This document shows, one piece after another, positions 5,501 to 56,028 of a stretch of 64,000 nt of DNA. Made by a program: the position numbers and the translations under genes. Origin of the DNA: Amoebophrya sp. A120 (taxonomy: Eukaryota > Protista > Dinoflagellata). Below the pieces are notes generated by a model that did no database searches, was not told where the DNA came from, and was given only the letters and a program-made list of their open reading frames with translations. Each line of letters starts with the position of its first letter. Positions within the stretch are counted from its first letter, which is position 1. The stretch spans positions 8,832,411-8,896,410 of the forward strand of contig CAJINV010000004.1 of NCBI GenBank assembly GCA_905178155.1. Direction: 5' to 3'.

Positions 5501-8500
5501 ATGCAAAAATCTGTGTTGCAGGATTACCAAAAGCTGGCCACTTTTGACCAAGTTGACAGGGGATTTCTCATGCAGAATAGGCAACATGACAGAGGTCTGA
5601 TAGTATCTGTCCTGCAAGGTTCTGCATTCCAGACCTCATGCGTCATGTACCACATGCATCACAAGTTTGCATTTTTCCAGACCCAGACATTTTTGAAATA
5701 GATACGTGTGGCCGCACGACAAATCCTCCGCCAGCGGGAGCAGTCTGTCGCCAACATATGAGCTGCAAAAGTATCGTACTAGTATAGATTGCATTACAAA
5801 TTTCCTGTGCGTGAGAAATGCAAATAAAATCTGTAATGCGGATTTATCTTGACAGAGAAATTTGTAATGCGTGGGTGCAATTACGACGAGTAGTACGATA
5901 CTTTTGCAATGCATACAACAGTGGTGCACCAAATTGCCGCGAACGGGAACGCAAGCTTACTGTCCAAGATGTTCAAGCAGTACCCGCAGTTCATGAGGTA
6001 GTACGAGGAGATGGTGATCATGAAATTTGTGATCATGCTCCATGTACATCTGTGTTTGATCCACTTCTAGTTGTCATGCGAGATGCCGTACAAAACCTGA
6101 AACAACATTCAACAGCGCGATGCTCGTGACCCCGGACAACGGCGGCGCGCTCCCACTGATGGTGGCGGTGTACCAACAGCAACTGAAAACAGCGGTGCTC
6201 CTGCTCCGTGCCTTGGTAGAACTAGTGAAGCACCACGCGAAGGAGAAGATGGACTACGCGCAGATGCTGCGGGAGGATCCGGAGGCAACCGTAACGCCCG
6301 CGCAGTTGCCGCCGGTTCTGGAAACGCTCGTCGCGTTCTACCTGAAAGCGCAGCAGATCGCCAACCCGCTAGCAGGTGTGTCCGCGTCGAAACGCGCATC
6401 GCCAAAAGCGGCGAGGAACAGCGCAAATCAATCCGGAACGAGTACTTCTCTGAACACCAGCTCCATGAACAGTGTGCAGGAAGACGGCAGTATCCTCGAT
6501 CCCTGTGCAGTTTTACCAGAATTTTGGTACTGCAGCGATTTTGTTTTGGACAAGTTGGCGCAGGGCACGTACCCATTGGTACCGCTGGAAGAGGACGAGC
6601 AGATACACGCGACAAGGTTGAGCCAATTGCAGGAATTGTGGACGCTCTTTGGGGCGCTGGGATTCGGTATTGTTTGATAGATGAACTGTAAGTATGATTT
6701 ATTTGATTTGTCATGCAATTTGTAGTGCAAGATCAAGAAGGATTTGATCTTTATTTGGTATTTGTATTGCACACACTCACACTCCGGCGCACCACGCGAC
6801 CAAAGGTACCGCCAACAACGACCGCGTTACCCGCGCCGTGCAGCTCGAGCTGCTGCAGCTCGCCACCTATCAAATGCAAATATGTCTGGGTCGGAGAGGT
6901 TGCAAGACTTGTCATGCAGGTTTTCCATGACGCGCGAGGTCTGTCATCCACGACCTAGCATGACAGATTCTGTGCGACCTCTATCATGCCTGTCCTGCAT
7001 GAGAAACTGCCTCTCGGTTAGGTCAGAAGTGGAAAGCTTTTGGCACTCATGCAACACAGATTTTTGCATGATTCGGATTTAGCATGACAAGTTGCAATCT
7101 TCCAGACCCAGACATTTTTGCAACCCATACCACCTTCCTCGCGCTGATCAAAGCCAGAGACAGTTCGAAACGGACGGTATTGATGCTGGCGTGCAGGATG
7201 AAAAACCCGGTGCACGAGGGAATGGTAAAGTTCATCCTGGAAAAAGTACCCGACTGCGAGCTGAACGCACTGGACCAGTGGAACAAGTCCGCGGTCGACT
7301 ACGTGATGGAATCCAGCAGCACAAGTTCGGCGAAACTGTTGTTAGACTACGGTGCGAAAGACGCGATGGGCCAGGATGTGCTGCTCAGAGCAACATTGGA
7401 CAACAACGCGCACGTGATTCAGTTTCTCTTGAGCTACGTGCAGACCACCGGGGCGGCCGGAGGTAGTAATACTGGATCGATGTGATCTGTGTAGCGTGAT
7501 TGTTTGGTTGAAGGTTTCGTTCATTGAATAAAACTGAATCTCAATTCTGTCCGTACGCATAAGTATATTATCGAAGCATACTTAAAATGGAAAGAATCAA
7601 CCATCTCCCAGATTCGGACGCCGCTGGTTGGAGCGCGGGCAACGCGTTGTGGCTCCTTCGCCGTGGCGCACAAGCGACGGGCACGTTTTGCACCTGTTTC
7701 ATCCCGGCGAATTGTCAGGAGCTGCGGGTTCGCTACCCGTTGGTGTTCGGCAGAACCTTCCCGAGAATCAAGTCCCTCGTCCGAGACAGCAACGCGGGCA
7801 AGGTGTTAGAGGACTACCGGAATCTCAACGAAAGGTTAGAACAGGAGCAGAAGGAGCGGGAAGGGAAAAACATAGGGCTCATCCCCGTGCCGAAGAACCC
7901 GAAGGGGGAGTCTCTCGGTGCATTAACCGGTCTGGACGGGTTGGACATCTTCGTTATCAATTGCAAAAATGTCTGGGTCTGGAAAAATGCAACTTGTAAT
8001 GCTGTCTGCGGGTTCTAAAAATTAAAATATCTGTGTTGCATGAGTAGCAAGAGGACTCAATTCTTGGCACGCGAAGAGGGCATTTGTCATGCGTAGTTAG
8101 CATCAAGAAGCTCTCAAAAAATCTGTGATGCTAGCACCAGCATCACAGACCTGACGGGTCATGCAAAATGTGCATGACAGGCCCCGACTCTTCCAGACCC
8201 AGACAATTTTGCATTTGATATTCGTCGGCCGGGTGCAGTGCTGGATCTGCAAGAAAACGCACACCGGGTCGGAATCCTGGGTGGGGCCGGTCGCGTTGCA
8301 GCTGAAGTTCGAGGCGAAGAACGACGAGAAGGGCGACGACCTGCTCGCGCAGGCGGACGCCGCGAGGACGGGGACAAGGCCCGCCAGTCGGGGGAACAGT
8401 CCGCAGAAAGGGAACAAGCCGGGCACCGCAGAGTCGAACTCACCAAGTCCGAGGAGAAGTACGTCCTTATTTTGTGCTACAAATTATATGCTTTTCCTGC

Positions 8501-9147
8501 TTTTGCATCCATTTTCGTATGACAAATGTTTCCTCGGACCACCCACCCCTCCGGGCTTTAGTTGCACAGTTTGTTTTTAAGCATGACAAATGTTTCCACT
8601 GATACAGTTTTCATCATCCGCATGGCAAAATGAAATGAAAACGATCACATGAAAAGGTAAATCCCCCGGAGCAGCAGACGATGGTAGTGACGCTGCACCC
8701 ACGTTACGGCTTTTCATGCACCACGCCTGCTGTGTCGGCTTGGAAAACTACCTCAACGAGGAAGCTGCCAGAAGGGAGGCACAGATACCGAAGGTACTTT
8801 ATGTACTTAAGGCTGTTTTTTTATCAGGAGATAATGTGCAGGACCACAAACACAGTGTTTTTCTCGCACTTCTGCCGGACTCGTGATGTGTATAGAAGCT
8901 GCAACCACAAGTTCTAAAAAAAAATTCATCACAGCGTTCCCAAGGCGGTATCCCGAAAGCCCGCGCGCGGCAGCTGCTCAAGGACGCAAAGTCATTTGAG
9001 CACGAGTTTCGGGAGGTACCAGCGACGGCAACACGGACGTGGAAAACCTCCCGTGGGTTCGAGAACGTCGGGTTAAAGCCGCCGAGCTACGCCGGGGCAT
9101 CGGACAACCTTGGGTCGCTCAAGAAGGGGGAGTACACGATCCGGTGA
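2512..9147 (+). CDS. Multi-exon ankyrin-repeat protein (5' end uncertain)
   Basis: Removing 7 elements and GT-AG introns (3389-3524, 3978-4101, 4967-5026, 5998-6115, 6667-~6805, 7463-7611, 8459-~8677, 8794-8934) gives one open frame with ankyrin motifs TVVHQIAANGNASLL, KRTVLMLAC, NALDQWNKSAVDY and AKLLLDYGA; TGA ends at 9147. Confidence 0.72.
2599..2886. mobile_element. Introner-like element, family B
   Basis: TATTCTGAGTAAAAACGGGCCCAC...GTGGGGACAGTTTTCCCCACGATA; DR tcccc/ccccc; removal gives SLPDDF. Confidence 0.8.
3646..3924. mobile_element. Introner-like element, family B
   Basis: TATCCTGAGTAAAAACGTCCCCAC TIR; DR tccat; frame restored (AIHPELF). Confidence 0.9.
4144..4363. mobile_element. 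Introner-like element, family D
   Basis: TATGAAAGTGCACAACTCCCCCT...AGGGGGAGTTGTGCACTGTCATA; DR tgcgg. Confidence 0.9.
5441..5704. mobile_element. Introner-like element, family A
   Basis: ATGTCTGAGTCTGGAA...TTCCAGACCCAGACAT core; DR cgtgt. Confidence 0.9.
5757..5915. mobile_element. Introner-like element, family C
   Basis: TGCAAAAGTATCGTACT...AGTACGATACTTTTGCA; DR caaca. Confidence 0.9.
6868..7129. mobile_element. Introner-like element, family A (opposite orientation to 5441)
   Basis: Family A TIR; DR ccacc. Confidence 0.9.
7955..8220. mobile_element. Introner-like element, family A
   Basis: Family A TIR; DR ttcgt. Confidence 0.9.
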
Positions 9148-10159
9148 GCTGCTGTGCTGGGAAGGGATGGGAAGGCAAGGTACTGTTTTTTTCTGCAATA
9201 AATGATTCGAAATCTTCACAATTGCTGATATTACAACTGTTGCAAGAACCGATACAACATCACAACCCAATTATTTCTTTCAATCAGATACGAATTCCAA
9301 TTCGTTCACAACATCTAACGATTTGTCAAGAAACCAAAAGAAAACAATAGCAACCCTTTTTCGTCGTTGAGAAAGTTTCAGTTAAAGTTGATTTTCCAAT
9401 AGCAGCACCAAATAAAAGGCTCAGTGAGTGGTCTCGGTTATAAAAGCAAGAATAGGCGAACTTCGTTTCACAAATGACCAAAAAAATAAATCCGTTTCTC
9501 TAGGACCAGTGTAACACAAAGGTGTTGATGTATGAAAAGTGAAGTTTGTTGCACTAGGAAATGACCATCAAGTTACGGTATTCACGCCGCGCCAAGAACG
9601 ACGACAAGCTAGAACTGGAGCAGGCACCGACGGCCTGCGTGCCATGTGTGACCGCCGTAATTTGTTTTTCGGATGTAAGTACTTAGTTTACTACTGTCTG
9701 AGGGTCGTGCAGCGTTGATGCCCCCCTCTTGCCGGCCGCCCTCACTCATTTGCCCTTTATTCGCAGCTTCCTTCCTTCAAGATCTGCAGATTTTTTTGCC
9801 GATGCCGATCCTGTGTATTTCTTTCCGATCTTTCGTTCGCTTAGTGTCAGAAGATCCTAAAAGTTGCAGTAGATCTCTTTGTTGCCTTTTTCCCCAGCAC
9901 ACGCGGTCCGAAAGATCTTGATTCGCTGTGAACTACGCTTTAGTAAAGAACTACAGACCGCTTGTATGAATATCAAGTATGCGTCGATTTTTGTTGGCGC
10001 CGCGATATAATTTTTTGCACGACTTGCTTCTTAGCACACACAATCACAAACACAAAAAGCAAGCTGCGTGTATTGTCAGGCTAGGACGATAATGTCGATG
10101 CAGCTGATCGTGCAGTGAGACGAACTCCCGGGAGGTCGTAGACGTTCACAGCACTCACC

Positions 10160-13100
10160 ATGGCGGCTGCAGCTTCATCTCTCCTCGCTGTACATCCCTT
10201 ATGCCAGTACACAACTCCCCCTCCCCCCCATCTGTGTAACATGAGCGGCAATACAAGCAGCACCCAGACTGCCGGTTTTGCATGACAAATTGGCACTGGA
10301 TTATAGTGCTATTTGGGCTACCAGAACTTGTCATGCAAATAGTGCCAAGGGGCACAGCCCGGATTAGGGATTTTGCATTACAAATGAGGGGGAGGGGGAG
10401 TTGTGGTTGTGCACTCTCATATCCCTCAACATCCAGCGTCTTCTCGGGTTCCCGGCGCGTCGCTTCGGATTTCCTGACCGCCGCGCAAAATGCGAGCGCA
10501 CTCTCCTGGTACCGGGAGTGGTCCCCGCACGCGTTTTTCAAGACGAAACCCACCAACGCGGATGTAAAGCGGTACTGCGACTTGTGGGTCGGCAGCCTGC
10601 TGTCTACTTCCGCGGCACCTTCTGGAGCAAGTGGACATACGGGAGGACGAGGCGGGGACGAGGAGGACCACACTATTGGTTCCACCCCTGGTGGTTCTAC
10701 TTCACGGCTTAATTCTGCTCTCGGAGGTGGAGTACCTGCGTTACCCACGACCAGTGCAATTGCACTTCCGCGGAATTATCAGAAGCCGGGAAGTAGATCT
10801 CCACTACAGGCTCCACCTTCGATCGACGGCACGAAGGCGCCCCAACTGCTCCACGCCGGCGAGGAGCTCGGCTGCTACTACCACCTGTCCCGCCTCATTC
10901 TCACCGCGACTCACGCTCCTGCGGCCGGGGTTCTCCTCCAGCGGGTGACGGAGGAGAAATTTGTGGAGAGGCAATGCGAGAATGACAGTGGGGGGAAGGA
11001 CATCTACCAACTGATCCGGATCTACGAAAACTGCTCCACGGCGATTATTGCGGCGAAAGCGAAAGAAAAGGGCGGTGGTCATCTTCCCGGAAGGAGTGGA
11101 GCTGGTAATGCTCCCTGTGCATCATCAACCAGCAGCGGAGGTTCTTCTTCTTCCCCAAGTAGAACATCGACTACAACTTGGGCATCCGAAATCGTCGTTG
11201 CGATCCAACGTTTTCTTCTACCCCGCGTAAGCGTATCGCAGTTCTCTGCGCAAAGTCTGGCGCTGGTGCTGCAGCATCTGAGTAAGCTCTGCGAAGTCCA
11301 CGACTTGCAGAATGTGGACATTTTTCAACATCTGATGTTGAAGGGAGACAGTTCTACTTCAGGAGGAAAAATAACTCGGGCGTCCGCGTCGTCGTCTCCA
11401 CCGTACTATCGTGGTAAAAATGATATTGTTCACCGCGCCGTCAACTCGTCTGACGTAGTAGAAGATTTCAGCAACAATTTCCATTTTATGCGACAGTGGT
11501 GCACGGCCGCCAGCTCCTGCCTGGACTCCTTCGCCACACGAGAGCTTGCGCACGGTGGATTCGCGTTCGCGAGGGTTTTGCAAACGACCATCGATGAGAA
11601 GCAACAGCGACGGAAAAAAACGCTGCTTTTCCAGGTGGATCTGGACCAGCATTCCCGGAAATTTGCAAAAAAGTGGTGCTCGGAGCTGCTGTTGCGATGC
11701 AGATCGGATAATTGGATGACGACGACAGCGTCAGATACTAGTAGTTCTAGTTGCACTTCTGTCTCGCATATGAACCATTCCGACCTGAACTCCCAAGCGG
11801 TCGCTGTGAGCTTGCAGACTTTGGGTCTGTTTGCCAGCTATCAGGTCTTCGTTCCGCAATCCGAAAGTAGTAGTACACGACCAGGGGGTAGTACTCGCAC
11901 TGACTCGCACGACGTCGGCGATGAGCAGAATCTTCGCGTCGCCCCTAGCACATCCGCAGCGGTGAAGGAGCTCTCTTTGCTCCTGGCTGAGAAATTTTTC
12001 CTCGCCAATTCCGATACCAAGGAAGACCCGCTTGGCCCGACGCATTTCATCGGCGCTCTGCACGCGCTGAGCCGGCTGTCTTTCGCGGAGTTTCTGTCGC
12101 CGGAAAAGAGCGGCGAATTCGCGTTAAGGTGGATTGCTGCGTACTTGGGCCGGGAGAGCGAGAAGTTCTCTTTGCAAAATTTGTCGAACGCGGGATATGG
12201 GATAGGGAGATTGCTGTCGACGAGCAGGTTTGGAGGAATACCATCACATGATGTGCAAGAAACACGACGATCTGGATCATCAGCGACAAGTGGCAAAAAT
12301 CTACTGAGTGTCGCAAATCACCCGCTTCAGCAGCAGCCGATCCTGCAGCCCGAGTTCCTGATTCGTGAGTTTCTAGCCAAGTGGCAAAGAGAGGTGGCAG
12401 AGAAGAATCTGAACCCGCTAAACATCCGGGACCTGACCAACATGATGGCAGGTGTTGGGAAGTGCGCGGAGATTCTGCACACGTTCACCTCGATGGGAGC
12501 AAACAAGGAGGGCGGCTGTCCTAGTGGCGCGGCGTCCGATGATTGCCCTCTCGAGGGCGTTGAGGATATTTTGGAGGACGACCACGCACCTGCGCAAATG
12601 AAAGAAGTCGATGCGCGTGAGTCACAGCAGTCCTGTTCACGACTGCTGCGCAAGACGATGAAGCTGTCCGGCCGTGGAGTGCTACGCCCACCGACGACGA
12701 CAAAGCCGAAGCCGCTGCTCGACCCAGACTTCCTAAAAAACTGGCGAACAACCGCTACGGAGAAAATATCTAGTTTCACCCCGCAAGCCCTGGCGCACAG
12801 TCTCAGCGGGTTGGCGAGCAGTGTGTGCGAGGACGTTTCTTCTACAGAAGATGATTATGACGGAGCTAAAGCTACTACTTCTGGAGGTACTAGAAGTTGT
12901 TCTGCGATTGGTGAAGAAGCTGCTGGTGTACTATCATCGTCATCATCGTCATCATCGCCCAACAACAAGGACATTGTTGCAGAAATCCAAACTTACCTTT
13001 CCGATTGGCACTCGCAGCTTTTGAAAACCAAACATACCTTCAACGACCAAGCGGTAAATGTGAGCCTCGTAGCAATACTGAAATTCCTGCAAGGAGCTTC

Positions 13101-14511
13101 ATCTACAACGCATCAACAGTCTTCTGATGTCGATATTCATCCTCCACCACCCTCTCAGGTGTTGCATGAAGCGGTTTGGACTCACGCGTACCGGCCTTTG
13201 GAAGCGGTGGTCACGGAGAAGCTGACATCGCAAGATCCGAAAGTGCTGACCGACCGCGGGCTGCTGCAGATTCTGCACAACGTCAGCAAAGTTCAGGAGC
13301 GGAGGACGCAGCTTGGGCTCTTGGCGAAATGTTCTAGTGCCGATGCATTGCCATTTTTCGAGGCCTGGGAGGGCTGCGCCGCGGCGTACATCGGACGCAA
13401 GACATCAGATACAGACAGTGCGCACTCAAGTTGTGGAAGAAATTCGCGGAGCCGGAGCAGCGGCATGTCGCCCGAATGGCTGGGGTCCGTGATGCGTCCG
13501 TATGTCCGACTGCTAGACCAGATTCCGCCGGAGGAATTGCGGGTTTCGTCAAGAAAAGTGTTCCACAACGGACCTTTTCTCCCCGCCTGGAGTCACGCGT
13601 GGAAGCAGACGCAAAACACAGAAAATATTAAACCAGCATCTACTTCCAGTGCCAGGTATAGAAGTAGTACAACGGCAAATGCACTATCCCCCCGTGCTAT
13701 GCTCTGCGCAGTGTGGAGCGTCGCGCGGCTGCTTGGGCATCCGAGCTTGATACAGCGGGTGCAATCGGTGTCGGACTTCGTTTCGGAGCTGTATGGGGAG
13801 GAGATGAAAAACGAAGCCTCTAGCTCTACCGCAGCGGCTGCGGACTCGGAGATGAACTACCACGACCTGTGTGAATCGAACACACGACGATCATCCCCGG
13901 AACTACAAGCGCGCGCGGACAACCCGCAGTCGTCGCGAGAAGATCACCATGATGAGCTCTCGTCCACTTCACAACAAGCTCACGACCACCTCCCTGCGGC
14001 TCCGGCTCCCGCACAGCACGACAACTCTGCCATCCCTGCCTTTTGGTCTGCCGACGATCTCGTCGCCGACTTTTTGCCCGCGTGGGTCTCGTTTCTGGAG
14101 GAGTACAGAAAACAGCAGAAAACGATCCCGACAAAGTACCTCGTGGCGCTGCTTTTTTCCTTAAAAAGACTTGCGGTTTTTCAAACGAATAAAGCACGGA
14201 GGACTAGTTTGTTTTTTGCCACAGGAGAACGTCGAATAGAAAAACAGTTTCCATCACCTCTCACCTCCGAAGCCTTCCTCCAATCGAACCTCCTCAACCT
14301 CGTCCGTTTTTCCCAGCTACGAAGCGGCAATCTCGCCGTGCTGGTCCAAAGCGTGGCCGAGCTGGAGTGCTCGTTGGGGGGGAACGCCGCGTTTTGGTCC
14401 AGGGTGATCGAGCGGGCCTTGCAGCTGAAGTTTAATTCCTTAGAGATCGGAACGGTGGTTTTGGCCTTTGCACGCACGCTCGACCGCTGCGAGTGTGACT
14501 TCGGTTCTTGA
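10160..14511 (+). CDS. Helical-repeat (HPR/OPR/FASTK-like) putative organellar RNA-binding protein
   Basis: Removing element 10200-10421 joins ATG10160 (MAAAASSLLAVHPSTSSVFSGSRRV) to the long ORF; about 14 dispersed repeats such as FSAQSLALVLQHLSKL, FSLQNLSNAGYGIGRL, FTPQALAHSLSGLAS and FNSLEIGTVVLAFART. Confidence 0.65.
10200..10421. mobile_element. Introner-like element, family D
   Basis: Family D TIR; DR tccct. Confidence 0.88.
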
Positions 14512-44702: not shown

Positions 44703-47281
44703 ATGGCAAGGCACTCTATTCCCGTTCGCCTTGTCACCTTGTTTTCCTTCTTTTCTTTGTACCTCCAGAACGTTCGCGCTCTGAAGTTGTGGAGCTGGAT
44801 CACCGACGGGTGGCTGCCCCGAGTAGTGTGAGCAAAAACGTCCCCACCCCATAGTTGTCATGCTAATCTACACGCTTAAAATCTGTCTCATGCGGAGCCC
44901 CACGAGAAGCATTTTCTAGCCGCTTTTTGGACTTTGTGATGCTCGAATCAGCATGAGCTGCTAGACCTGTGATGCTGCTCCGCTGGCTAAACAGGACTGC
45001 GCTACGTGGCCAAACTTGTCATGCCCAACAGCCAAAGCTTGTTGATTTGTCTAGCAGATTTGCCATCTTGACTACGGGGTGGGGACGTTTTTGCATAGGA
45101 TACCGAGCGGAATTTGTTCTAACGCGAGACTTGTTCGACCCGGTGCGAGACCGCGTGGCCCTCTACCCTCGCGCGTCGCGGGACCTGCAGCTGCGAAACG
45201 CATTGACTGCGGGGGTGGCAGCTGCTGCGCAGGATGACCTTGTTCACGTGCAGCCCCTGGGACGGGCGACCTCCGAGGAGGCACCGAGTCCGACGGGAAC
45301 TGCGATCAATTATGCGGGAACTTCTTCACAAGAAGTACTAGCACCAACTGGTGGAGCAGCTGCTGCTAGAAGGGCTGCTGCTGCTACTGCTGCTCAAGAG
45401 GCGGGTGCTGCTAGTGGAGGTGGTCGTCGTACTGCAGGAGAACACCGAACAAGCGAAACAACTGAGGGGCGCAGCAGTGACGAGAATTCTGGAAGTATTA
45501 ACACGAATCATGCAGAAGCCAGTGCGCCGTCGATGGCCGCCAGCGGGATGATAGTACAACAGGAACAACTACAAGCACAGCCACAGCACGAGTCCGACAA
45601 TAACGATAACCGCAATGACAAGTCGCTCATTCCGCACTGGTTTGATTTCCTGCGTTGCCTCCCCGTGTTCGGGCCCATTTTTCACTCGGGCATGAATCCC
45701 GACGACTTTTCGGATTTCGTGGTGGATCCGAGCTGGGACGTAGCCAGGAAAAAACACTCATCCCCATCCATTTTTTGCATGACAAACACTGCAACGTATG
45801 CACGTTTTGCATGACAAATTGGATGGGGCTGGGTGTTTTTTCCTGGATAGAATGTGCAACACGGGCATTATTCCAGGTGGTTTCCCTGCTTTAACACGGT
45901 AGAGGACCCGGACGAGGGATCCGGGCCCCTGTGCACCGAGCTGACCAACCTGCGCGAGCTTCAGAAAAACTGTCTCTGTTGCTCCGCGACGCTGCTCACC
46001 TGCGGTACGGGCGGCATGCTCGGCACCTTCCCCGACCCGCGCATGATCGGCGTAATTTGGGCGGCCCACGTGGGCGGCTGCGCGGCCTGTCACCTCATGG
46101 TGATCAGTGCGCAGAAGCTGCACGAAAAGTTTCAGCCCGCCGAAGAGAACGACGACGCGGAAACCCGGCCTTGCTGTCTCGGAGTCTGCCGCCTGCGGCA
46201 GCGCCGCCGGCAGCAGGTTCTTGCTGGGGAAGAGGGAGCAGAGGGAGATCTAGAGGCGGATCAGGCCGTTGCTGAGCGTGGTGGCCTTGGACGAGTACAG
46301 CTGCATGCGTGCCGCCGCTGCAGTTCCTTCCTCCGTTCCCACCTGCCGCAAGTCGCCGGTCTGAGTAAGGAATTCAAGCGCCTTCCCCGAAGTAGAGCAG
46401 AGCTTATCAACCGGCGGTTGCCCGAGGGCATCTACCTGCCGGAGGCCGACGACAGCACATTCACCTCACCCCGTCAAGCAGGCGCGCCGGGCACAAGACC
46501 TCTCGTTGCTGGGTTGTGGTGCCTGCAGCTCAGCCCTGCTGACGCCCGCGGTGTGTTCCGCGGCACGGAGGGGGGCGAGGCAGATCCCAATGTTCCGTGC
46601 CCTGTTTGTGCGGAGATGATGGAGCTCCACGGACGAAGATCTCATGAACAGCAATACCGGCCCGGTAAAAATGTTGCTGGGGCTTCATCATCTGCGGTGG
46701 ACACGAGGAGCCGTGGCGGGGAAGGCTCCTCTAGTACTGCAGGTTCAACATCCACTTCTTCATTTCCTTCCCGTTCCAGTATCGGAATTTTGCAGTGCCC
46801 GGGTGAACACGCGATCTGCCGCGGCTGCGCGGAGAATCTCTCCGTCCGCCACATGTGGGAATGCCCCACCTGCCGTGGCTTTGTGGGGGCGCGAACGACG
46901 GTGTGTAGCTCTTTCTCTCGCAGCTGTTCAGTTGACGAAAGACAAGAGCAGCTTCGTGCAAGAGCTGGTCGTGCCGCTGGTGCTGCCTTCAGCGGCCCGC
47001 TCGAGAGGGTGGACGCTGCCGACCCAAGCGAGACGACAGAAGCAGCAGGAAGTGCTGGAGGTACTAGTGCCACGTCGGTGGCGAATGGACGACGCCCATC
47101 TTCGAGGGCCTCGAGGCACTTTGTAGGTTGGGTGCTAGCCGCAGCGCCGGCAGCGGACTCAGCTGCGGCATCGCAGGAGGCGGATCTGTTTTCTCCTCCT
47201 TCATATTGTTCCGGGGCAGCAGGAGCTTTTCAACACGTTCTCGGAGAAGCGAAGCCGGTGCAACAAACCATGACTTTATGA
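44703..47281 (+). CDS. Signal-peptide and transmembrane RING-finger (C3HC4) protein, putative E3 ligase
   Basis: CPVC...CPGEHAICRGC...CPTCR; hydrophobic N-terminus and mid-region; 2 elements. Confidence 0.7.
44824..45102. mobile_element. Introner-like element, family B
   Basis: DR ccgag; left end TAG variant. Confidence 0.87.
45741..45849. mobile_element. Short 109-bp element (family G), also a GT-AG intron 45740-45850
   Basis: CCAGGAAAAAACAC..CCCCATCCA / TGGATGGGG..GTGTTTTTTCCTGG; DR ggacg/gaatg. Confidence 0.8.
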
Positions 47282-47935
47282 AAGAAAAACAGTCTGTTTC
47301 TTTTGACTTCTCCATCAAAAGTCTGTTCAAACGAAAACTGAAGCGATTTATATATGATCCCGCGCATGATTCCCAGATGGTGGTGCAGTTGATCGATGCA
47401 CTTTGCGTAGTTTCAAGCCCATCGCCATATGTAAATAGTATAACAATCGGGTAAATAGTAGCTGGAGAAAAGTACTGACTATCTCCTTTTTGTATCTGAT
47501 CTGCAATGTTGATTTCTCTGTGTGATTCCAATTTGATTTTCGATTTTCGGTTTGTTTACTTGAACGTCAAAAATGTCCTTTCATCTGTGTCGTGGGTGGA
47601 AGAATTATATAAGGGGGCATTTTGTCGTGGCTTTCGGTTTCGTCGGGATCATCTAACTAACTAACTATCTGCAAAGGGCACCTATTCGTCCTGGTGGTCC
47701 ATAATGTCGTTCTTAAACGAATGGGTCAGCACTCAACAGCTGCAGCTCTCTGATGGACGTACTCGTCTTCACGACCGTGTTATTCCGCGAAGCAACAATT
47801 CTGTAAATGCATTCCACAGCTTCATCTCTGCAGACCACTTTATCGCGTGGTTTTCTTCTGCGTTTTTTTCAATCGTGAAAAAATAATAACTCTGTTCTTT
47901 TACGCACAAGCTTATACCGTTTTATTTACCACAAA

Positions 47936-48597
47936 ATGTCGGCAAACTTGACGCAGACGGTTCTGACTCTGAATAAGGAGTTCGACAAGGCTCAGGACAA
48001 CCTGCACTCGATTGCTATGGAAGTGTCAGAATCGAAATTGACAAAATCGAAAAATTTGTGATGCACAAAATCGATGTCAGTTGGAGCCTCAGTCTCCAAG
48101 TGGCGCATGACAAATTTCGGGAGCACCCAAATCCAGTTTGTCATGCAGTTTGGGCGAAGAAGACTCCTCCTGTCATGCTACCCTGGCAGCACATTTTATA
48201 ACCCTAAACAGGCTCACAATCGGTCTCATTTGCCTGCTCCCCAATACAGGCCTTCAGTGCCCTACATTTTACGCATCACAGATCATTTCGATTTTCTTTG
48301 TTGATTTCGATCCTGACAGTTCCATAATTGCCCAGCTCTGCAGCCAAGCGGAAGAGCGGATCCGCAAGTCGCAGTCGCTGCAAAATGACTTTGCACGGTA
48401 CAGGATATTGGTCTGGTGTTTGTCAACTACATACGAGATGAGTACACATGCATGGCAGTATTTGATGTCATGCAAGTAACTAAAGCTATAGCTCTGTCAA
48501 AAATTCTCTCAGGCAATTCCACCGGCTCTCTGAGCAGACGCGGCAGATCATCACCGCTGCAGAGTCGCTGCAAGACACGGATCCGACACTGAAGTGA
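47936..48597 (+). CDS. Small (~76 aa) coiled-coil protein, missed by the ORF track
   Basis: MSANLTQTVLTLNKEFDKAQDNLHSIAQLCSQAEERIRKSQSLQNDFARQFHRLSEQTRQ..., after removing one element and a GT-AG intron. Confidence 0.7.
48016..48326. mobile_element. Introner-like element, family H
   Basis: TATGGAAGTGTCAGAATCGAAAT / ATTTCGATCCTGACAGTTCCATA; DR attgc. Confidence 0.88.
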
Positions 48598-49622
48598 AAA
48601 TTTGGTGGTAGCTTGGTTGATCAGGATGACAAATTTGGCTCTGGTGATGTACAAAGAGGTTTTTCTTCAGGGATACTTACTTGTATGATGTGATCGCTCT
48701 ATCGCAACTTAAATTTCGACGTTGTCACACTGTACGGCTGGCAATTAGCAGTAGTTCAGGACTGGGAGAATGAAAGAGAAAATATAAGAATTGGACCGCA
48801 GATTCAGATACTAGTACCCGCTAGTTACTTTGCAGATGAAATAAAATCGTTGTACTTGATCGTGCTAGAGGGCGTTCACCACCAGCGTTTCTTTGTTCAT
48901 CGTTTGTCGTGTTCGTCTTCGTTCTACCGTCGTTCAAAGAAGTCGCTCGCAATCGGTATCGCATTTTTTTTTCGTTCTTAGACGACGTGGTGTGTTTATC
49001 GAGGAAAACAAAATCGTACAGTCGTGCAGGGCCATCAAAATCCCAAGAAAAGTGAGTGCGGTAGTACTTCTCTAGCAAGAAAGTGGTATCAGATTTCAGA
49101 CGAGTCGGTTGCATCTTTTCCACGACATAGGAAATGACGGCTTCGTATTATCATACCTGGTTTTTTCCCAACTCGAATCATTGAACAGGACCTCATTCAG
49201 GACTAGACATTCGTAGCTTAAGTACGTAGAGTAGACCTCCGTTTTTATTCTCAGTCAGAACAGTCGTCTACGTCTTCCTCTTCTTCAGGGTGTTGCTTGA
49301 TTATTTTTACTGGGTGTTGCTACTCCCTTTGCTGATAGACCTCATCGTACGGGTATGTGACTAGGCGTATGTATTTGTATTCTAAAGAGGAATCGAATGC
49401 AGATAATGCGCTTCTAGGATAGGCACGTCACACAACTGTACGTCGACCCCGGTTGGGGGTTTTGCGTCACCTGCTGTGCGGCAACCGCGGTTTCAGTTTC
49501 TGGTGTCCTCGTCTGCGGCAATCATGCACGCGACAAAAACGCGCGTAGCCGTAGGTCATCGAGTGTAGTAACTCGGCAAGGAAGTAGTAGTGCTGAAGAA
49601 GAAGCAGCCAACGCACCACAAA

Positions 49623-52600
49623 ATGGCGTGCTGTGGTTGTTTCCGCGGGGGAGCTGCAAAAAAATCCCAGCAAGAAGTCGAGGAAGAGAACCAGTGGAAA
49701 GAACAACTTTTCTACGAACTGCAGCAGTCCACTGAAAACGCCCGGGAATCGCAAAAACAGCTGCAGCAAGTGGCGAACGAGGTGCAAGCGCTGAGCCAGC
49801 GGGTCAGCAGTGGAGGTGGTTCTCAAGGAGCAGGGGAGAATCATGGTGGCGTTGACGATTTATTTTCCGGCAGACCGACGGGTCATGGTGATGGTGGACA
49901 ACTCTCGTCGTCGTCCGCACCAGGTGGTACCACAACTCGACTCGCAGCAGATTCTGTCGCTGAGGCGAGACTGGAGGACATGCTTGGCGAGCTGTTGAAG
50001 AGATTGTCGTCCTCGAAGGGCCGGAGCCGTGTTTCTGATGGGGACAGAGCTACGAAAAGATCCAAAGCGGGCACCACGACGAGCGGGCCCTCTAAAGAGG
50101 ATGTAGTGGGGAACAAGCAAGATGGGAATGATGACGCGGTAGAGATAATAGACGAAACGTCCCTGAGCAAGGCAAGCAGCAGTTCTACTTCCAGCTCCGC
50201 GACAGATGACAAGAAGGGCCTCAAACAAGCCGGTAGTCTTCAAAATGCTGGTGACAACATTAAGAAGGAAAAGAAGATAAAAACGGTACAACAGAGAGTC
50301 AAGGCGCTCTTCTCGGCGGCCGGGAGATTGAAGAAAGGAACACAGGACAAACGAAAGTCGGCGGTTCAAGCTGAGATTGAAAGGGGAAAAGTGAAAGAGA
50401 ACGTGGGGAAGTTTGAGGACAAAATCGTGGGAGCTGCTGCGAAGAAGAAAGGAGATGGAAAAGTGGGTACTAGTACTACTGTGGTTCCAACTGCTAGTAC
50501 AATAACCCCAAGAACACAAGTAGAGAAAGCAGAAGAAGCAGACGATGACGTCGAAGCAAGTGGAGGAGCTCTTGCAGAATTAGCGGAAGTAGACACCAAA
50601 ACCGCCGTGCCAGTAGGGCCCAAAGGCAAGGTCAGAGAACACATCGGGCTATTTCAGGACAAAATCGCAGAACAGCAATTAAGCCCAAGAGGAGATCCAA
50701 TCGAGAAAAGGTCCTCTCCTCGCAAGAATATCAAACCCAAGCCATTCCTTTCTCGCCAATCTGCTACCATCGTCGACGTGCAGTCGAAAAACCTCAGCCA
50801 TGCGCCGTTGGTCGACGAGCTCCAGCGACTGCTGAAGCGAAGGCAGGAGAAGATGACGCGAGAGAAACTTCGGCTCTCTTCAGTCGATATCAAAGGGGAC
50901 GAGGCGGTTAGCACTACTATCGAGGTGAAAAGCCGCGACTACGGGACCAGACACAGCAGTCAAAGGCACAGCAGTGCAGTCGTTTGCGACGTCAGCTTCG
51001 GGCAGGGTCAGTTCGACATTGAGCCAGATCAGGAGATGTACCGACGGATTATAGCTGCTGGTGGTGCAGCACACGGGACAAGCAAGCACGTTCCGATTCA
51101 CCTGCATCTACCGCATTCTTCGCATAAGCAAGTGGAGAAGAAAAGCGTGGAGCAGGAGCCGGTTGAAGACGTGACATTATCAAGCGACGAGAAGCTGCCA
51201 TCTGTGAGAAAAACAGCAAGCGCGGTCGTCGCTAGCGGTGTTGTGCCGGAAACGGTTGCGGGTGCACAAAAAGAAGTTGTGAAACAGATGCGGAACACGT
51301 TGGAAAGAGGAAGTCCTCGTGCAGGAGGAGCTCCAGGCGCAGCGATCATATCTTCTACCCCGCAGGAGGATAGTATCAGTCCCAGGTCACCGGACACTCA
51401 CTTACCCGTTTCGGCAAGGCAAGCACCACACGAAAAGCCTGCTGCAACATTATCGCCCAGAGTGGTGGTTCGGAATAAAAAGGATGGGTTTTTATCTCCG
51501 CGCGACTTCGTTGACGCGAAAGTTATCACGACCGCAAGGACCTCTACCTCACCTAGATCCGCCACCTCCGCCGAAACGCCGAAAACCAACATAGAAACGA
51601 CGGAATCGTCCCCGGCCGAGTCGTCCACGGATTCGGATGTTGTGCTTGACTTGACGACTGGCATGGGCCAGATTGACGCAGTACAGCAGGAGCATTTCTA
51701 CGACGTCGATGATGACGATTTGAATTGCGACATTGACGCCACAAAGTCCAGACCGAAGTTTTTACCCGAACTCGGAGATAAACTGCGTGCTTCTTCGGTT
51801 GTTTCTATAGAGAGCCCGCGGGTCAGCATGGTGTTGGGGGAAGTGGTTTTGCCCGGCGGAAGAGCAGAAGATGATCCGCCTGCGGCGGAGGTTTTCGAAG
51901 GTACGCCGCGGACCATGTCGTTGGATCTAGATTTGTTTACGACCAAATCCGATATCATTCAGGCGGCGAGAAAGAACCAAACGCTCGCGACCGCGGGGAG
52001 GTATGGTGGTATCAAACCACCAGTGAGTGCGTTATCGTCTCCTAAGCGACCAGGTGGCTTGACGTCAACAACGCCCAGAACAACTGGTGCAGCAGCTCCG
52101 GGTCGTGGCGTTGTTGCTGGCATCAAGCTGCGCTTGACGAAACAGCCCAAGGTGGCTGCGGGGATGAAACAGCCCAACACAGGTGTGGAGGTTTTTTCCG
52201 TGTCGGAGCAGGAACGTCGGCTACAGGCAGTTCCGAAAAGTGGCAAGTCCGTCCGAGAAATGGCAGCTTCGCTTGCGGATCGGATGAGAATGTCGGACGA
52301 AGTTAATAGCGTGTCGTCGACGGGATCGACACATCAACCAAAGACCACCGCGACCCAAATAAAACCAGCGGGTTCGAAAGCGAAGCCTTTTATCAGTCCA
52401 AAGCGTCCTTCAGCTGTTAGTACACGAAAGCCTTCTACGGCGAAAGTCACAGCTGCACCAGTGAAACCGCCACCGGTAGTCCAGGCGATAGACGCAGATA
52501 AAGAACAAGCAGATGAAATTCTGTCTTTACAGGCACCGGAATCCTCAATCGATACACAATCAGAACTCGCTGGACCTCCGGCAGATAATTACAGTGCGTC

Positions 52601-53441
52601 CGTCTTTGCCAAAAGGCCGAAACACCAAGCTCCGGCTCCTGAAAAGGCAATACGAGAAGAAGTGGACAAGGACAACAAGTCCGGCTCTACTTCCTCAGGA
52701 AGCGAAACTATAGCCATGGCCCAACTGGCAGAGAAGCTTACGAAAGAAGATGAAAACAGATTTGACGTGGATTTTCACGTTGAGCACGACGTGGCCACGT
52801 TGAGCACGACACGCTTGCCTCTGGCAGCCGGCCGAGCCGGTCAAGACGCTGACAACGCCTCCTCTGCCTCGTCCGTCGGAGAAAAATTGCGAAAATTGCT
52901 GCATCAGGGTGCGGAAGATCTTCCGGAAGGCGGGACTACCGAGGAGGACATCGGTTCAGACGCGGAGGTGCAGAGCGTGCAGGTGGACCTGGATCCGGAT
53001 TATGACCAGCACGAAGAAGCACTAGCGCCAAGAGGGAAGCAGGCGATGGAAACTACACGACGTAGCAGTACTACTGGTAGAAGTAGAAGAAGCGAACAAG
53101 AAAATAAGCGAGGGAAGAAATCTACACGAGAAGGTACTTCTAGCGGCCCCGCACCAGCACAGCCGCCCAATCATGAAATGGTTCTCCAAATGAATCTGGA
53201 CGCCTTCGCCTTGCGCAGCAGTATGGCGACCACGCATGTTGGTATTACCACCGACGACGCTACTTCTGAGGGAAATGGTATGGAAACGCCACCGGAAAGC
53301 GCTAGAGGTGAGGTGGACTTTTTCTCCCCGCGGGCAGGAGACGGGGGCTTCCTGTTCGGGCCAGATCTGCTTTCGGACATCGTGGATCGGAAAACATTGG
53401 AACAGATCGAGCACGGGCATAGACCTCGTACTCGGAACTGA
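49623..53441 (+). CDS. Large intronless low-complexity protein with Cys-rich N-terminus (MACCGCF) and many SPR/TPR sites
   Basis: Uninterrupted ORF of about 1270 aa; N-terminal coiled coil. Confidence 0.8.
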   Translation: MACCGCFRGGAAKKSQQEVEEENQWKEQLFYELQQSTENARESQKQLQQVANEVQALSQRVSSGGGSQGAGENHGGVDDLFSGRPTGHGDGGQLSSSSAPGGTTTRLAADSVAEARLEDMLGELLKRLSSSKGRSRVSDGDRATKRSKAGTTTSGPSKEDVVGNKQDGNDDAVEIIDETSLSKASSSSTSSSATDDKKGLKQAGSLQNAGDNIKKEKKIKTVQQRVKALFSAAGRLKKGTQDKRKSAVQAEIERGKVKENVGKFEDKIVGAAAKKKGDGKVGTSTTVVPTASTITPRTQVEKAEEADDDVEASGGALAELAEVDTKTAVPVGPKGKVREHIGLFQDKIAEQQLSPRGDPIEKRSSPRKNIKPKPFLSRQSATIVDVQSKNLSHAPLVDELQRLLKRRQEKMTREKLRLSSVDIKGDEAVSTTIEVKSRDYGTRHSSQRHSSAVVCDVSFGQGQFDIEPDQEMYRRIIAAGGAAHGTSKHVPIHLHLPHSSHKQVEKKSVEQEPVEDVTLSSDEKLPSVRKTASAVVASGVVPETVAGAQKEVVKQMRNTLERGSPRAGGAPGAAIISSTPQEDSISPRSPDTHLPVSARQAPHEKPAATLSPRVVVRNKKDGFLSPRDFVDAKVITTARTSTSPRSATSAETPKTNIETTESSPAESSTDSDVVLDLTTGMGQIDAVQQEHFYDVDDDDLNCDIDATKSRPKFLPELGDKLRASSVVSIESPRVSMVLGEVVLPGGRAEDDPPAAEVFEGTPRTMSLDLDLFTTKSDIIQAARKNQTLATAGRYGGIKPPVSALSSPKRPGGLTSTTPRTTGAAAPGRGVVAGIKLRLTKQPKVAAGMKQPNTGVEVFSVSEQERRLQAVPKSGKSVREMAASLADRMRMSDEVNSVSSTGSTHQPKTTATQIKPAGSKAKPFISPKRPSAVSTRKPSTAKVTAAPVKPPPVVQAIDADKEQADEILSLQAPESSIDTQSELAGPPADNYSASVFAKRPKHQAPAPEKAIREEVDKDNKSGSTSSGSETIAMAQLAEKLTKEDENRFDVDFHVEHDVATLSTTRLPLAAGRAGQDADNASSASSVGEKLRKLLHQGAEDLPEGGTTEEDIGSDAEVQSVQVDLDPDYDQHEEALAPRGKQAMETTRRSSTTGRSRRSEQENKRGKKSTREGTSSGPAPAQPPNHEMVLQMNLDAFALRSSMATTHVGITTDDATSEGNGMETPPESARGEVDFFSPRAGDGGFLFGPDLLSDIVDRKTLEQIEHGHRPRTRN

Positions 53442-54127
53442 GTTCTTCGGGATGTTGGTGCTCATTTTGATAGTAGCAGTAAGCTGAAATTTTTTAGGAC
53501 AATTGGTGTCTGCTTTACTTCAATATAGGACAATCTGAAGACTTAGACTGCGCGACAGACTGTGAGTCTTGTTTGGCGCAAAAAACAACGCGGCAAAGCA
53601 CGAGAAGTGACGTCATCGTGTTCTTTAGTCTCATTACATTTTCGGTATAAGTCTTTGTATGTTGCAACAGGAAAGCAACGCCGCGCTCCTTGTTCTGGTC
53701 ACCACGAGGATCGTCAGTAGAATGCACCACTGGTTAGAAGTATTTCTACCGCAAAAGAAAAGGCTCATGCTGATGACAGACGATCATGCACCAGGTCTAG
53801 ATTTTGATGTTGTGACGCTCGAACCAAGGATCCTTCACTTGCAGCATTTGCAAGCTTTTTTTTTTCTAGGATGCAAGTAGTTGGAAATCTTCATGAGCAG
53901 CGATGAACAACACATCATTTTTCGGCAACAAAAAGTACTAAGTAGAACACACCAGCATAGGCGTGCTGGGAGTATTTTCCTCGCCAGAGTAAACTTTTTT
54001 TGTCCACCGACTAGAACCCCTCCTGGCAGTGGGACTCCAAAAAAACCTTTTTGTGATTCGTATAACCCATAATTTGGCCGATTGACATTGAAGCAGCTGA
54101 TCTGAAACTAGCTACCTTTCCTACAAA

Positions 54128-56028
54128 ATGGTCGTGACCCGTTCCCCCCTCCACCCCCGAACGCTCGCGAAGGCGCTGACTGTCCTCGCACTCACGACTA
54201 CTCAGCACCTGGTAGATGCGAAGAAGAAGGGGAACAAGAAGAAAAATGCGAAACCCAGCTACTCAGAAGATAACATACCACCCGGCGGCGCGAACTACGA
54301 CGACATTCTTGGCGGTGGGGGAAAGGGAGGACTTGGGGGCCTCGGCGGACTCGGCGGAGACGACGGGTATGGGGATTTGTTCAAGCCAGAAACCAACTGC
54401 CCAGTTTTCACGTGCCCAAAAGGACAGAAGCCGGTGCAGAAGGGTGGGAGTAAAAAGAAGGACTTCCCGGTGGTTTACGGTTGCGACGCGAGTTCCTTTG
54501 ACATGATGATGATGCTGGATCCGAGTAATCTAAACGGCGCGAAAAAGGGGGGAACCAGGGAAAAATTGTGGAAGGTATAATAAAGTAGAGCTGCTGCAAA
54601 TTGTTAGTGCAATTGGAGGTTGCGATCATGCATGATTGACAAAACACAACTCATACTATGCCTGATGCTTTTTCCGCATCGCGATCTCATACACTACGAA
54701 AAATTATCAGTGTTGTGTCGGGCGGGACATCGGACAGCAAACTTGCGTATCAAATGCAAAAATGTCTGGGTCTGGAAGAATGCAAGTTTGTCATGCTTGT
54801 CTGGCATGACTCGAGAATCTGTGTTGCATAGCCACGAAGAGGCCCTCTTACCTGTCATGCAAAAACGCAGTTTGCCATGCGGAATACGTAAGACATGGCA
54901 GCCAAAAAATTCGTCATGCGTAGCTGCGTATTGCAGTGCGTTTATCATTCACTTTCAGCATTACAAGTTTCCAGACCGAGACATATTTGCAATCCATATT
55001 GCGGCAGAACGAAGAAAGAGATAGAGGACGACTTTGGCACATGTACAAACAAGAAATGCAAGGGAGATAAGAACTGCAAAATGAACGCACAATTCGGTTC
55101 CATGATGTCCGGGGGAATCAGTGGCGACAAATGCGACGAGTATAGGGATATTTAAACAACTACGTGAATTTAAATTTTTTTCTATTTTGTCATGCGGTGC
55201 ATGCACGAGCACGAATCTTCTGAGCAGTGTGTCAATCAATCTGTGTAGCTGCATCATGTTTAATACATATACAACATTATCATCCAGGTACAACAAATCC
55301 CAAGCAGCGAACTGCGAGTGCGTTCCGGAGGATGACACGCAAGACTCCTTCAAAAAAGCTTTGAAGGGTTTCTACGGGATTTTTGCAAAAGAGAAACTGC
55401 CGAAGGACGGCGGCGAAATCGACGACCAGTGGATGTCCGAAACGGTGTACAAAAGCTTCAAGAAGGGACAAGAGCCGAAGATCTGGTAATTTTTGATTAA
55501 AAACTTGACAAAATTGACACGAATGGAAACGAAGTAGTACCACAGCATGACAAAGAATAAGAAAAACACTTCTTTTGGGTGGAAAAATTTCTGCATTTGA
55601 CAAAAAACTCCTTAAAAACAGGAACGCTCTGTTCACAAAATACTCCTCCAATCTCCGGCACGAGGACAAGCCGAAGCCAAAATACGACTACCCGCCCCCC
55701 ATGGACGAGGACCTGCCGGATATGAAAACCTCCAGTAGTTCTGCGGATGCGAAGAAAAACACAGAAAAACCGGCAAAAACCTCCAGCACATATGAACTGC
55801 AAAAGTATCGTACTCGTAGAAATGCATGACAAATTCCCTCAGCGTGAGAAATATAATTTGTCATGCGGATTTAGCTTGAGACGAAAATTTGTAATGCATG
55901 ATTGCGATTACTACGAGTGCGATACTTTTGCACAGGATAGCACAACCACCACCACGATGCCCGGGGATGACGACTTTGGGGCGACGCTTGGGGGGGACGA
56001 AGAACTAGTCGAAGATGTGGAGTTGTAA
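54128..56028 (+). CDS. Secreted group XII phospholipase A2-like protein (probably inactive)
   Basis: Signal peptide; CPVFTCPKG..VYGC..KCCVGRDIGQQTCGRTK..F..C...C..YNKSQAANCEC pattern; GT-AG introns 54575-54710, 55140-55287 and ~55487-55621; ends EDVEL. Confidence 0.75.
54748..54998. mobile_element. Introner-like element, family A
   Basis: DR ttgcg. Confidence 0.9.
55791..55939. mobile_element. Introner-like element, family C
   Basis: DR gcaca. Confidence 0.9.

Follow-up and report, generated by a model that had tools for sequence, protein, structure and literature searches.

The closest described systems are the introners of Amoebophrya sp. A120 itself. In the available part of Farhat et al. 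2021 (PMC7789003), Amoebophrya is reported to excise, apparently with no U1, introns that number in the tens of thousands and lack GT-AG ends, and the A120 introner ends are given as 'TAT, seven less-conserved nucleotides, three As'. In the 22 of 58 rows covered, Gozashti et al. 2025 (PMC12130899) class the A120 entries as TIR DNA of unknown superfamily and list TIR families of 148-160, 208-227, 252-261, 278-279 and 305-322 bp. Euglenid nonconventional introns follow the code N3-CDG ... CHG-N5-6|R and have been reported as circles after excision (available parts of PMC12501133 and PMC11282704). Among transposable elements, IS2 has bipartite, unequal ends with an outer cleavage and an inner binding domain (PMC3299598, available part). 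Our literature search found nothing joining Amoebophrya and RtcB, and no title dealing with how A120 removes its introns.

We analyzed a stretch of 64,000 nucleotides of the A120 genome, called the window below, and catalogued in it 41 TAT...ATA elements spanning 2599..62641. They belong to families A (15 elements), B (8), C (6), D (5), E (3), F (3) and G (1); the letters are labels of this analysis, A and C being meant as in the prediction from which we started. The elements at 18445, 28873 and 38155 were added by eye, the candidate at 21787-21914 was dropped as chance and the candidate at 34224-34557 was excluded because it has no TSD. TAT stands at 77 of the 82 window ends and A at positions 11-15 in 61-79 of them. 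The 5-bp TSD is perfect in 31/41 window elements and in 62/81 metagenome copies among the matches listed, TSD similarity being part of the element search rule; window elements with an imperfect TSD include those at 17700, 17898, 18445, 28873, 29514, 38155, 39813 and 40182. In their TIRs, constant TSD and lack of coding capacity the elements resemble MITEs of DDE transposons. Searches of Rfam and of viral contigs gave 0 matches each, and a protein search with the frame 60827-62389 gave no homologue.

As far as the available part of PMC7789003 goes, the window elements agree with the A120 introners in having TAT, less-conserved bases and three or more As, direct repeats at the junction (3-5 nt as a defining feature, 5 bp in the Fig. 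S19 legend), a hairpin and no dinucleotide signature, and in lying alongside GT-AG introns in one-strand gene clusters. Their size classes resemble the A120 TIR families in the rows covered of PMC12130899; seven repeated families of similar length occur in the window, and 81 more family C copies are among the metagenome matches listed. The four nucleotides studied here refine the published consensus of these introners. End classes, transcript independence, fully paired cases and the bias at position 21 described below are not reported for A120 in the available parts of these two papers.

The euglenid introns (PMC12501133; PMC11282704, available parts) share with the window elements non-GT-AG ends, a TIR stem, TSD-like repeats, slidable junctions and a spacer of free sequence and fixed length adjoining a paired motif. 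In Euglena, however, the spacer lies outside the paired motif and is unequal between the ends (3 vs 5-6 nt), whereas the window elements carry four relaxed nucleotides inside the TIR at both ends, capped by an invariant TAT. IS2 (PMC3299598, available part) and the MITEs of DDE transposons also have an outer cleavage and an inner binding part, unequal ends, a constant TSD and subterminal repeats; unlike them, the window elements have no cognate transposase that we could find. With the substrates of tRNA endonuclease (BHB) and IRE1/RtcB (PMC13149111) they share an intron defined by structure and not by GT-AG, but nearly all copies lack a BHB helix or IRE1 junction motifs.

Mismatch between the two ends at positions 4-7

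In the original prediction, a hypervariable stretch of 4 nt separates the terminal TAT from the conserved TIR core. All ten terminal 7-mers that it quoted are present at the coordinates given, with TGCAAAAG after each. Family C elements are flanked by a 5-bp duplication, and the window holds six of them, including one at 15722..15874 that had been overlooked:

5757..5915, no strand assigned: family C element, 159 bp, TSD CAACA, positions 4-7 at 5760-5763/5909-5912, 3 mismatches, an intron of gene 1
15722..15874, no strand assigned: family C element, 153 bp, imperfect TSD GCGGG/GTGGG, positions 4-7 at 15725-15728/15868-15871, 1 mismatch
15942..16097, no strand assigned: family C element, 156 bp, inverted relative to 5757, TSD TGATG, positions 4-7 at 15945-15948/16091-16094, 4 mismatches
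17700..17847, no strand assigned: family C element, 148 bp, inverted, TSD CACCG/TACCG, positions 4-7 at 17703-17706/17841-17844, 2 mismatches
22838..22987, no strand assigned: family C element, 150 bp, inside a gene for a CobW-family GTPase, TSD TCTTC, positions 4-7 at 22841-22844/22981-22984
55791..55939, no strand assigned: family C element, 149 bp, TSD GCACA, positions 4-7 at 55794-55797/55933-55936

RNA offsets are among the evidence for the element at 5757, while that at 22838, outside the RNA coverage here, restores the frame when removed; the element at 55791 has a G at TIR position 21 of its 3' arm (55919).

Comparison of the left and right ends of these six copies gave 17 mismatches out of 24 at positions 4-7 against 0/48 at positions 8-15 (Fisher p 3e-11). 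Over all 41 window elements the counts were 68/164 and 48/328. The predicted excess over the inner TIR was thus recovered in family C and also in families A (25/60 vs 21/120) and D (7/20 vs 1/40), but family B stayed at the inner-TIR level (9/32 vs 15/64). Nine of the 41 elements are fully paired at 4-7, and those at 22477 and 39087 are predicted to pair without a break over positions 1-22.

We extended the comparison to a metagenome scan that returned at least 139 loci (L004 and L041 being a single site counted twice). Among these, 65 of the matches listed lacked a TSD-defined partner; they were mostly chance hits on unrelated contigs, with a few broken or TSD-less copies. The 6 window and 81 metagenome copies among the matches listed make 87 family C copies, which mismatch in 252/348 cases at 4-7, 24/696 at 8-15 and 6/261 at 1-3, the search pattern having selected one end of each metagenome copy. 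The 54 unselected partner ends among the matches listed agree at positions 1-3 in 51-53 cases and at positions 8-15 in 47-54. Of the 87 copies, 85 mismatch at one or more of positions 4-7. Shuffling partners within families reproduced the observed mismatch of the 41 window elements (68 vs 66±5), and mismatch in the 87 listed copies of family C exceeded that of randomly paired pooled ends (252 vs 184±12).

End classes and polarity

The description of the four positions as hypervariable was not confirmed, family C ends falling instead into two classes. Among the matches listed, the 174 family C ends read G[AC]AN in 87 cases, CCTG in 57 and otherwise in 30, and the 87 copies combine CCTG with G[AC]AN in 49 cases, two G[AC]AN ends in 9 and two CCTG ends in 1. 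At 4-7, column identity (0.60, 0.63) is the same as in the lower quartile of the interior columns (0.61). The proposed consensus TAT[GC][AC]NN held at position 4 (G/C at 79 of 82 window ends) and position 5 (A/C at 71/82), but position 6 is A/T at 69/82 and not N. Window mismatches at position 4 are C/G in 13 of 16 cases. Family A, said to vary in the same way, does show the mismatch excess but varies less than family C, with CAAA as its main 4-mer. The first 14 nt of the CCTG end of family C recur in a family B end, as do 13 nt of the GCAT end in family A ends, and 15 of the 30 minor 4-mers among the matches listed are mosaics of the two parental versions.

In nine pairs of window family C elements, ends homologous by descent matched at 47 of 72 positions within 4-7 and opposite ends at 17/72. 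The element-frame test was not significant for the six window family C copies taken alone (p 0.09) or for families A and B (p 0.09, 0.19). Conservation between the closest pairs is lower at 4-7 (0.65) than in the interior (0.84). The two end classes of family C track the interior of the element, and the family inserts in either orientation: the A end lies 5' relative to the inferred transcript in 39 of 75 copies among the matches listed, and CCTG lies 27 times at the 5' and 25 times at the 3' end. Transcript strand was called from the flanks alone, a procedure that returned + in 21 of 23 held-out window elements. No transcript polarity was detected at 4-7 (paired tests, p 0.43-0.87, n=81 among the matches listed); the same paired test detects position 21 (p 0.0005) and so has power for 4-7. 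The asymmetry of the ends follows the orientation of the element DNA rather than that of the RNA, which makes a tolerated transposase spacer likely, and not a loop needed for splicing.

With the A and B ends fixed and partners shuffled, an excess of mismatch remained (252 vs 234±6, p 0.005; 87 copies among the matches listed); it vanished (237 vs 235±4.5, n=82 listed) only after post-hoc removal of five copies with both ends swapped relative to the interior. We found no selection on pairing at 4-7 in the 75 metagenome copies among the matches listed, in which 206 of 218 mismatches are transversions and G·U occurs 5 times against 7 for A·C.

TIR position 21 is polarized relative to the transcript, with 20 copies of U·G type and 0 of C·A type (p 0.0005; copies among the matches listed), and is the only sequence feature found to depend on transcript direction. 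General selection for G·U in the inner stem (47 vs 29 in the metagenome copies listed, p 0.026; window 16 vs 19) was rejected, the signal being driven by position 21, and arm covariation at 21-25 did not rise above expectation.

RNA support and predicted folds

Two host genes and three fully paired elements bear on the removal of the elements from RNA:

2512..9146, + strand: host gene 1, a 1239-aa frame once 7 elements (+5 nt each) and 8 GT-AG introns are removed, one exon with ankyrin repeats
15154..19348, + strand: host gene 3, a 671-aa ion-transport protein once 9 elements (+5 nt each) and 1 GT-AG intron are removed, PF00520 in two exons
3646..3924, no strand assigned: family B element, positions 1-7 all paired, excised from RNA with +5 nt
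16269..16524, no strand assigned: family A element, positions 4-7 all paired, right end TAA and not TAT, excised from RNA with +5 nt
17898..18106, no strand assigned: family F element, positions 1-8 all paired, excised from RNA with +5 nt

For 15 elements, in both orientations and over four sums, offsets in RNA contigs fit loss of the element together with 5 nt. This support consists of summed offsets in contigs from a single run, for which GT-AG introns were placed by visual inspection, and not of junction reads. Removal of +5 nt fits the records; +4, +6 and 0 do not. Raw RNA runs X8 and X9, which carry the same species label, gave repeat pieces only; of 30 bins, 2 had depth in X8 and 3 in X9. 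The 15 supported elements have 0, 0, 0, 1, 1, 1, 1, 2, 3, 3, 3, 3, 3, 4 and 4 mismatches at 4-7. Since removal is supported whatever the pairing at 4-7, and contigs of the host genes fit exact removal of the three fully paired elements, a loop is not required. The cut lies inside the TSD. At 15722, where the left-copy base at TSD position 2 is retained in the mRNA and the RNA piece ends at 15718, it falls 2 nt or more into the left copy, and at 2599 it falls 1 nt or more in. Placing the cut by protein frame at imperfect TSDs was uninformative.

A GT/GC-AG register is available in 1 of the 41 window elements and a GT-AG register in 7 of 162 strand cases (metagenome copies among the matches listed), and hairpin z-scores are -6.3, so structure-dependent splicing without GT-AG stands. 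We also rejected the CAG of CCTG ends as a canonical acceptor because the element at 3646 is consistent with exact removal and CCTG shows no preference for the 3' end (20/43). In 162 predicted folds of the matches listed, pair probability was 0.78-0.93 at 8-15 and 0.11-0.32 at 4-7, and TAT/ATA pairs closed the family C loop in about half. Predicted junctions of the window elements range from closed stems to frayed ends, the fold at 5757 having a 3x3 loop beneath a short closing stem. BHB geometry at the two cuts and a CNG|CNG-type motif in a stem-loop at each cut characterize the substrates of tRNA endonuclease and IRE1, respectively, and splicing of this kind with RtcB leaves 2',3'-cyclic phosphate ends and no lariat. 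A BHB 4-bp central helix, in any register, was possible in 8/116 cases and a CNG|CNG-type motif at both cuts was present in 1/116.

Explanations for the relaxed stretch

We favor, at a probability of about 0.6, the reading that positions 4-7, in the ends of non-autonomous DNA transposons that leave the RNA as introns, form a relaxed stretch of fixed length inward of the terminal TAT and outward of the TIR core. The stretch would likely space the site where the transposase cleaves from the one where it binds, and the two end versions of family C were likely inherited from its founder. A DDE-type transposase would read TAT at the cut, together with the core and the repeated GCATNACAAA motifs further inward. 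Minor-groove recognition tolerates a flipped base pair, and G/C at position 4 with A/T at position 6 may reflect such a double-strand read-out. The splicing machine would use the long inner stem and, as it would tolerate any state of 4-7, the RNA loop of family C would be a by-product. The founder of family C would have passed on two different end versions. Length is fixed in that TAT is in register in 143 of 149 core matches listed, and a mutated TAT in 4 more, a count biased by the search pattern and the partner finder. The spacer, which the original prediction had offered as its second option, agrees with this constant length, with a polarity linked to the element and with degeneracy as G/C and as A/T. 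No transposase domain was found in the 13 window frames scanned, and Farhat et al. (PMC7789003, available part) found no transposase in A120, so the protein is assumed; moreover, the fixed length fits a splicing ruler equally well.

Such a ruler, by which a non-spliceosomal, orientation-blind machine would bind the paired core at 8-25 and from there count a fixed distance across 4-7, the TAT and some of the TSD to its cut, leaves 4-7 constrained in length and free in sequence and pairing, as in the spacers of Euglena nonconventional introns. It draws on the near absence of a GT-AG register, splicing in both orientations, the strong inner stem, the reading of the stem in transcript direction at position 21 and the need in Euglena for random spacers of set length beside a paired motif (PMC12501133, available part). 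We nevertheless hold it unlikely: transposition already accounts for the conserved length, the cut within the TSD is bracketed and not pinned to a base, and the Euglena code is asymmetric and carries a CAG/CTG motif. Its fuller form, in which a spliceosome-independent machine grips the TIR core, prefers U·G 21 bp into the stem and uses the four nucleotides as a ruler to a fixed TSD cut, is rather improbable. Descent alone might also explain family C, as a chimera of family B-type and family A-type ends in which 4-7 drifts neutrally as a relic. The shared 14 and 13 nt and the mosaic minor 4-mers speak for such an origin, which is compatible with the spacer. As a complete account it is quite doubtful, leaving unexplained why 1-3 and 8-15 became identical at both ends and 4-7 did not, why families A and D are relaxed at 4-7 and why position 4 retains G/C.

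The original prediction of an internal loop beside the junction, cut by a tRNA-endonuclease or IRE1-like nuclease and sealed by RtcB, is largely refuted as a requirement and in our view highly improbable. The mismatches in nearly all family C copies, the loop folded at 5757 and the tRNA-type machinery proposed for euglenozoan introns (PMC12621601, available part) favor it. Against it stand the nine elements without mismatch, three of them RNA-supported, the lack of excess in family B, the frequently open TAT/ATA closure, a cut in the TSD outside TAT and not within the loop, 4-mers that ignore transcript direction and the near absence of BHB and IRE1 motifs.

Were the ruler real, one DNA end would serve both a transposase and a new mRNA splicing enzyme. 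The question of intron removal in A120 is narrowed, the terminal loop being dispensable, orientation irrelevant and BHB/IRE1 signals nearly absent. This directs attention to the length of the spacer, to the inner stem and to the exact place of the cut within the TSD, and the bias at position 21 offers a concrete site to test.

Hairpin introns and their removal from RNA

Scanning the window for TAT...ATA sequences with flanking duplications gave 39 candidates, of which one was removed as a chance hit, and three more were added by eye. The resulting catalogue of 41 elements comprises seven families, and family C has six members. Each TSD spans 5 bp, with perfect copies in 31 of the 41. One TAT base is altered in the elements starting at 16269, 28873, 38155, 43788 and 44824. 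The system is already known: in its features it corresponds to the introner elements that Farhat et al. (PMC7789003) described in Amoebophrya sp. A120, and A120 TIR families of corresponding size are among those tabulated by Gozashti et al. (PMC12130899). Other features of the window are as follows.

17098-17311 and 17898-18106: inverted family F copies in one gene, about 90% alike and 0.6 kb apart; we read these as local hopping.
34224-34557 and 38155-38523: B-type elements in two paralogous genes at sites about 5 nt apart, the first with no TSD and the second with GAT rather than TAT at its end; the offset possibly arose by sliding of an intron or by separate insertions.
20607-21101: 21-bp tandem repeat of about 24 copies within a long + strand frame.
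9147-9598: AT-rich sequence through which the gene 1 RNA contig continues for about 450 nt after the stop codon, with a GT...AG stretch that is retained.

The elements break up coding sequence on the + strand, and removing them (with 5 nt each) together with nine GT-AG introns leaves one frame of 1239 aa with an ankyrin domain and another of 671 aa with an ion-transport domain. The piece offsets of spliced contigs from run X1 agree with the element+5 nt model at 10 of 10 positions checked, and +4, +6 and 0 fail; the check is one of sums (15 elements in four sums, backed by open frames), with the GT-AG introns set by eye and partly from the remainder. Among these 15, families A, C and F are each represented in both orientations. 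Just 1 of the 41 elements offers a GT/GC-AG register at any point of its TSD. Judged from RNA piece ends, the mRNA at 15722 retains position 2 of the left TSD copy, and that at 2599 retains position 1 if left-shifted joints are assumed, which places the donor cut within the duplication, outside TAT. Element 16269 has TAA in place of TAT, yet its RNA fits exact removal, indicating that TAT is not strictly required at both ends for splicing.

Mismatch between the two ends at positions 4-7

The original prediction described a hypervariable 4-nt stretch (positions 4-7) between the terminal TAT and the TIR core. The pattern is real: all ten 7-mers given for five family C copies are exactly as stated, and mismatch at 4-7 exceeds that of the inner TIR rather than equalling it. 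Left and right ends of family C in the window differ at 17/24 sites at 4-7 vs 0/48 at 8-15, and those of all window families at 68/164 vs 48/328. Families A and D share the excess in the window; family B has none there (9/32 vs 15/64). Pattern-scanning metagenome contigs with N at 4-7 gave at least 139 loci, and those listed supplied at least 81 family C elements whose partner end could be set by a TSD. The flanks of these 81 copies have no match in the window, and two copies represent the same site. Among the matches listed, the 87 window and metagenome copies mismatch at 252/348 sites at 4-7, 24/696 at 8-15 and 6/261 at 1-3. Two further loci (L039:401-550 and L068:401-554) hold complete family C elements without a recognisable 5-bp TSD, and L068 has GGATAC repeats beyond its right end.

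When the 87 copies among the matches listed were oriented by interior sequence alone, their ends fell into two classes, one chiefly CCTG (52/87) and the other GCAT, GAAC, GCAC or GAAT (63/87). Most of the mismatch therefore reflects a constant difference of one end of the element from the other. Column identity at 4-7 (0.60 and 0.63) is close to that of the loosest quarter of interior columns; the stretch is relaxed, not hypermutable. In five copies (L004, L041, L048, L070 and L086) both terminal 4-mers are swapped relative to the interior, a state that inversion between the shared TIR cores would give. These five carry the residual mismatch excess (p 0.005 with them, p 0.35 after their post-hoc removal).

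RNA pairing and transcript polarity

The main interpretation originally offered was that positions 4-7 would form an internal loop for a tRNA-endonuclease or IRE1/RtcB-like cut. The hairpins are strong (z -6.3), but the fold predicted near the junction differs among elements: closed stems, 1x1 and 3x3 loops and frayed ends all occur; the mean TAT/ATA pair probability is 0.50-0.55 over 162 family C folds. Positions 4-7 are fully paired in 9 of the 41 window elements, among them the RNA-supported 3646, 16269 and 17898. By the usual definitions of the two motifs, 8/116 elements could form the central helix of a BHB, and 1/116 carries an IRE1-like motif at both cuts. The splicing context of such motifs is described in PMC13149111. 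Because of the fully paired elements, the variable shapes and the scarcity of these motifs, the loop is not supported as a requirement for splicing.

Transcribed strands were inferred from the flanking codon pattern only, which called + in 21 of 23 held-out window elements, all window genes being assumed +. On these strands the A end, defined by the element's own DNA orientation, comes first in 39 of 75 family C copies; CCTG forms the 5' end of 27 copies and the 3' end of 25, and no 4-7 position differs between the donor (5') and acceptor (3') arms (p 0.43-0.87). Transversions make up 206 of the 218 mismatches at 4-7, and G·U pairs are not in excess. At position 4, 79/82 window ends carry G or C and 13 of the 16 mismatches are C/G; such a mismatch puts G·G or C·C into the RNA, where the DNA has only a flipped base pair. 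Window pairs in opposite orientation match at 28/40 sites when compared by descent-homologous ends vs 8/40 by the same transcript side, although these pairs are not independent and an exact test on six copies gives p 0.09.

The only transcript-polarised site found is TIR position 21 of family C, which is C in 9/81 donor arms and 34/81 acceptor arms (paired p 0.0005) in one metagenome set with inferred strands. Under the strict motif there are 20 U·G-type vs 0 C·A-type cases (12 and 8 by element orientation). Whichever arm lies 3' in the transcript shows A-to-G on its sense strand, which makes a U·G pair, as at window 55919. Of the 135 columns tested, mirror columns 21 and 129 rank first and second (uncorrected p 0.002 and 0.005); once both are left out, the A>G strand bias loses significance (183/3695 vs 158/3668). 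C·A is tolerated at position 16 (8 vs 8), and position 23 tends the opposite way, so the signal is not one of general pairing selection. Possible causes are preference for a wobble pair, removal of a cryptic GTACG donor and a mutation hotspot with strand bias. A search of the open-access literature turned up no title that deals with the asymmetry of the ends or with the bias at position 21.

Organisation of the element ends

The alternative in the original prediction, a transposase spacer, is favoured over the loop. The end is most likely built of three segments: TAT, where a transposase would cut; a 4-bp spacer whose length is fixed but whose sequence is loose; and the core with subterminal GCATNACAAA repeats, which would serve for binding. 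GCATNACAAA occurs 98 times across 10.2 kb of elements, 4 times across 1.3 kb of canonical introns and not once across 5.8 kb of exons. The count covers window elements and the GT-AG introns in 3389-18943; decay of elements may have given rise to some of the canonical introns. The ends of IS2 are likewise bipartite and unequal (PMC3299598). The transposase itself is putative: none was found in the window frames examined, and Farhat et al. (PMC7789003) report none in A120.

In the main competing reading, which the data fit as well, the constant length of 4-7 would also give the splicing machine a ruler. The nonconventional introns of Euglena have analogous set-length spacers, which act as a ruler (PMC12501133, PMC11282704). 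With 4-7 as a transposase spacer, splicing would rely on the inner stem, ignore the orientation of the element and tolerate whatever state of 4-7 it meets.
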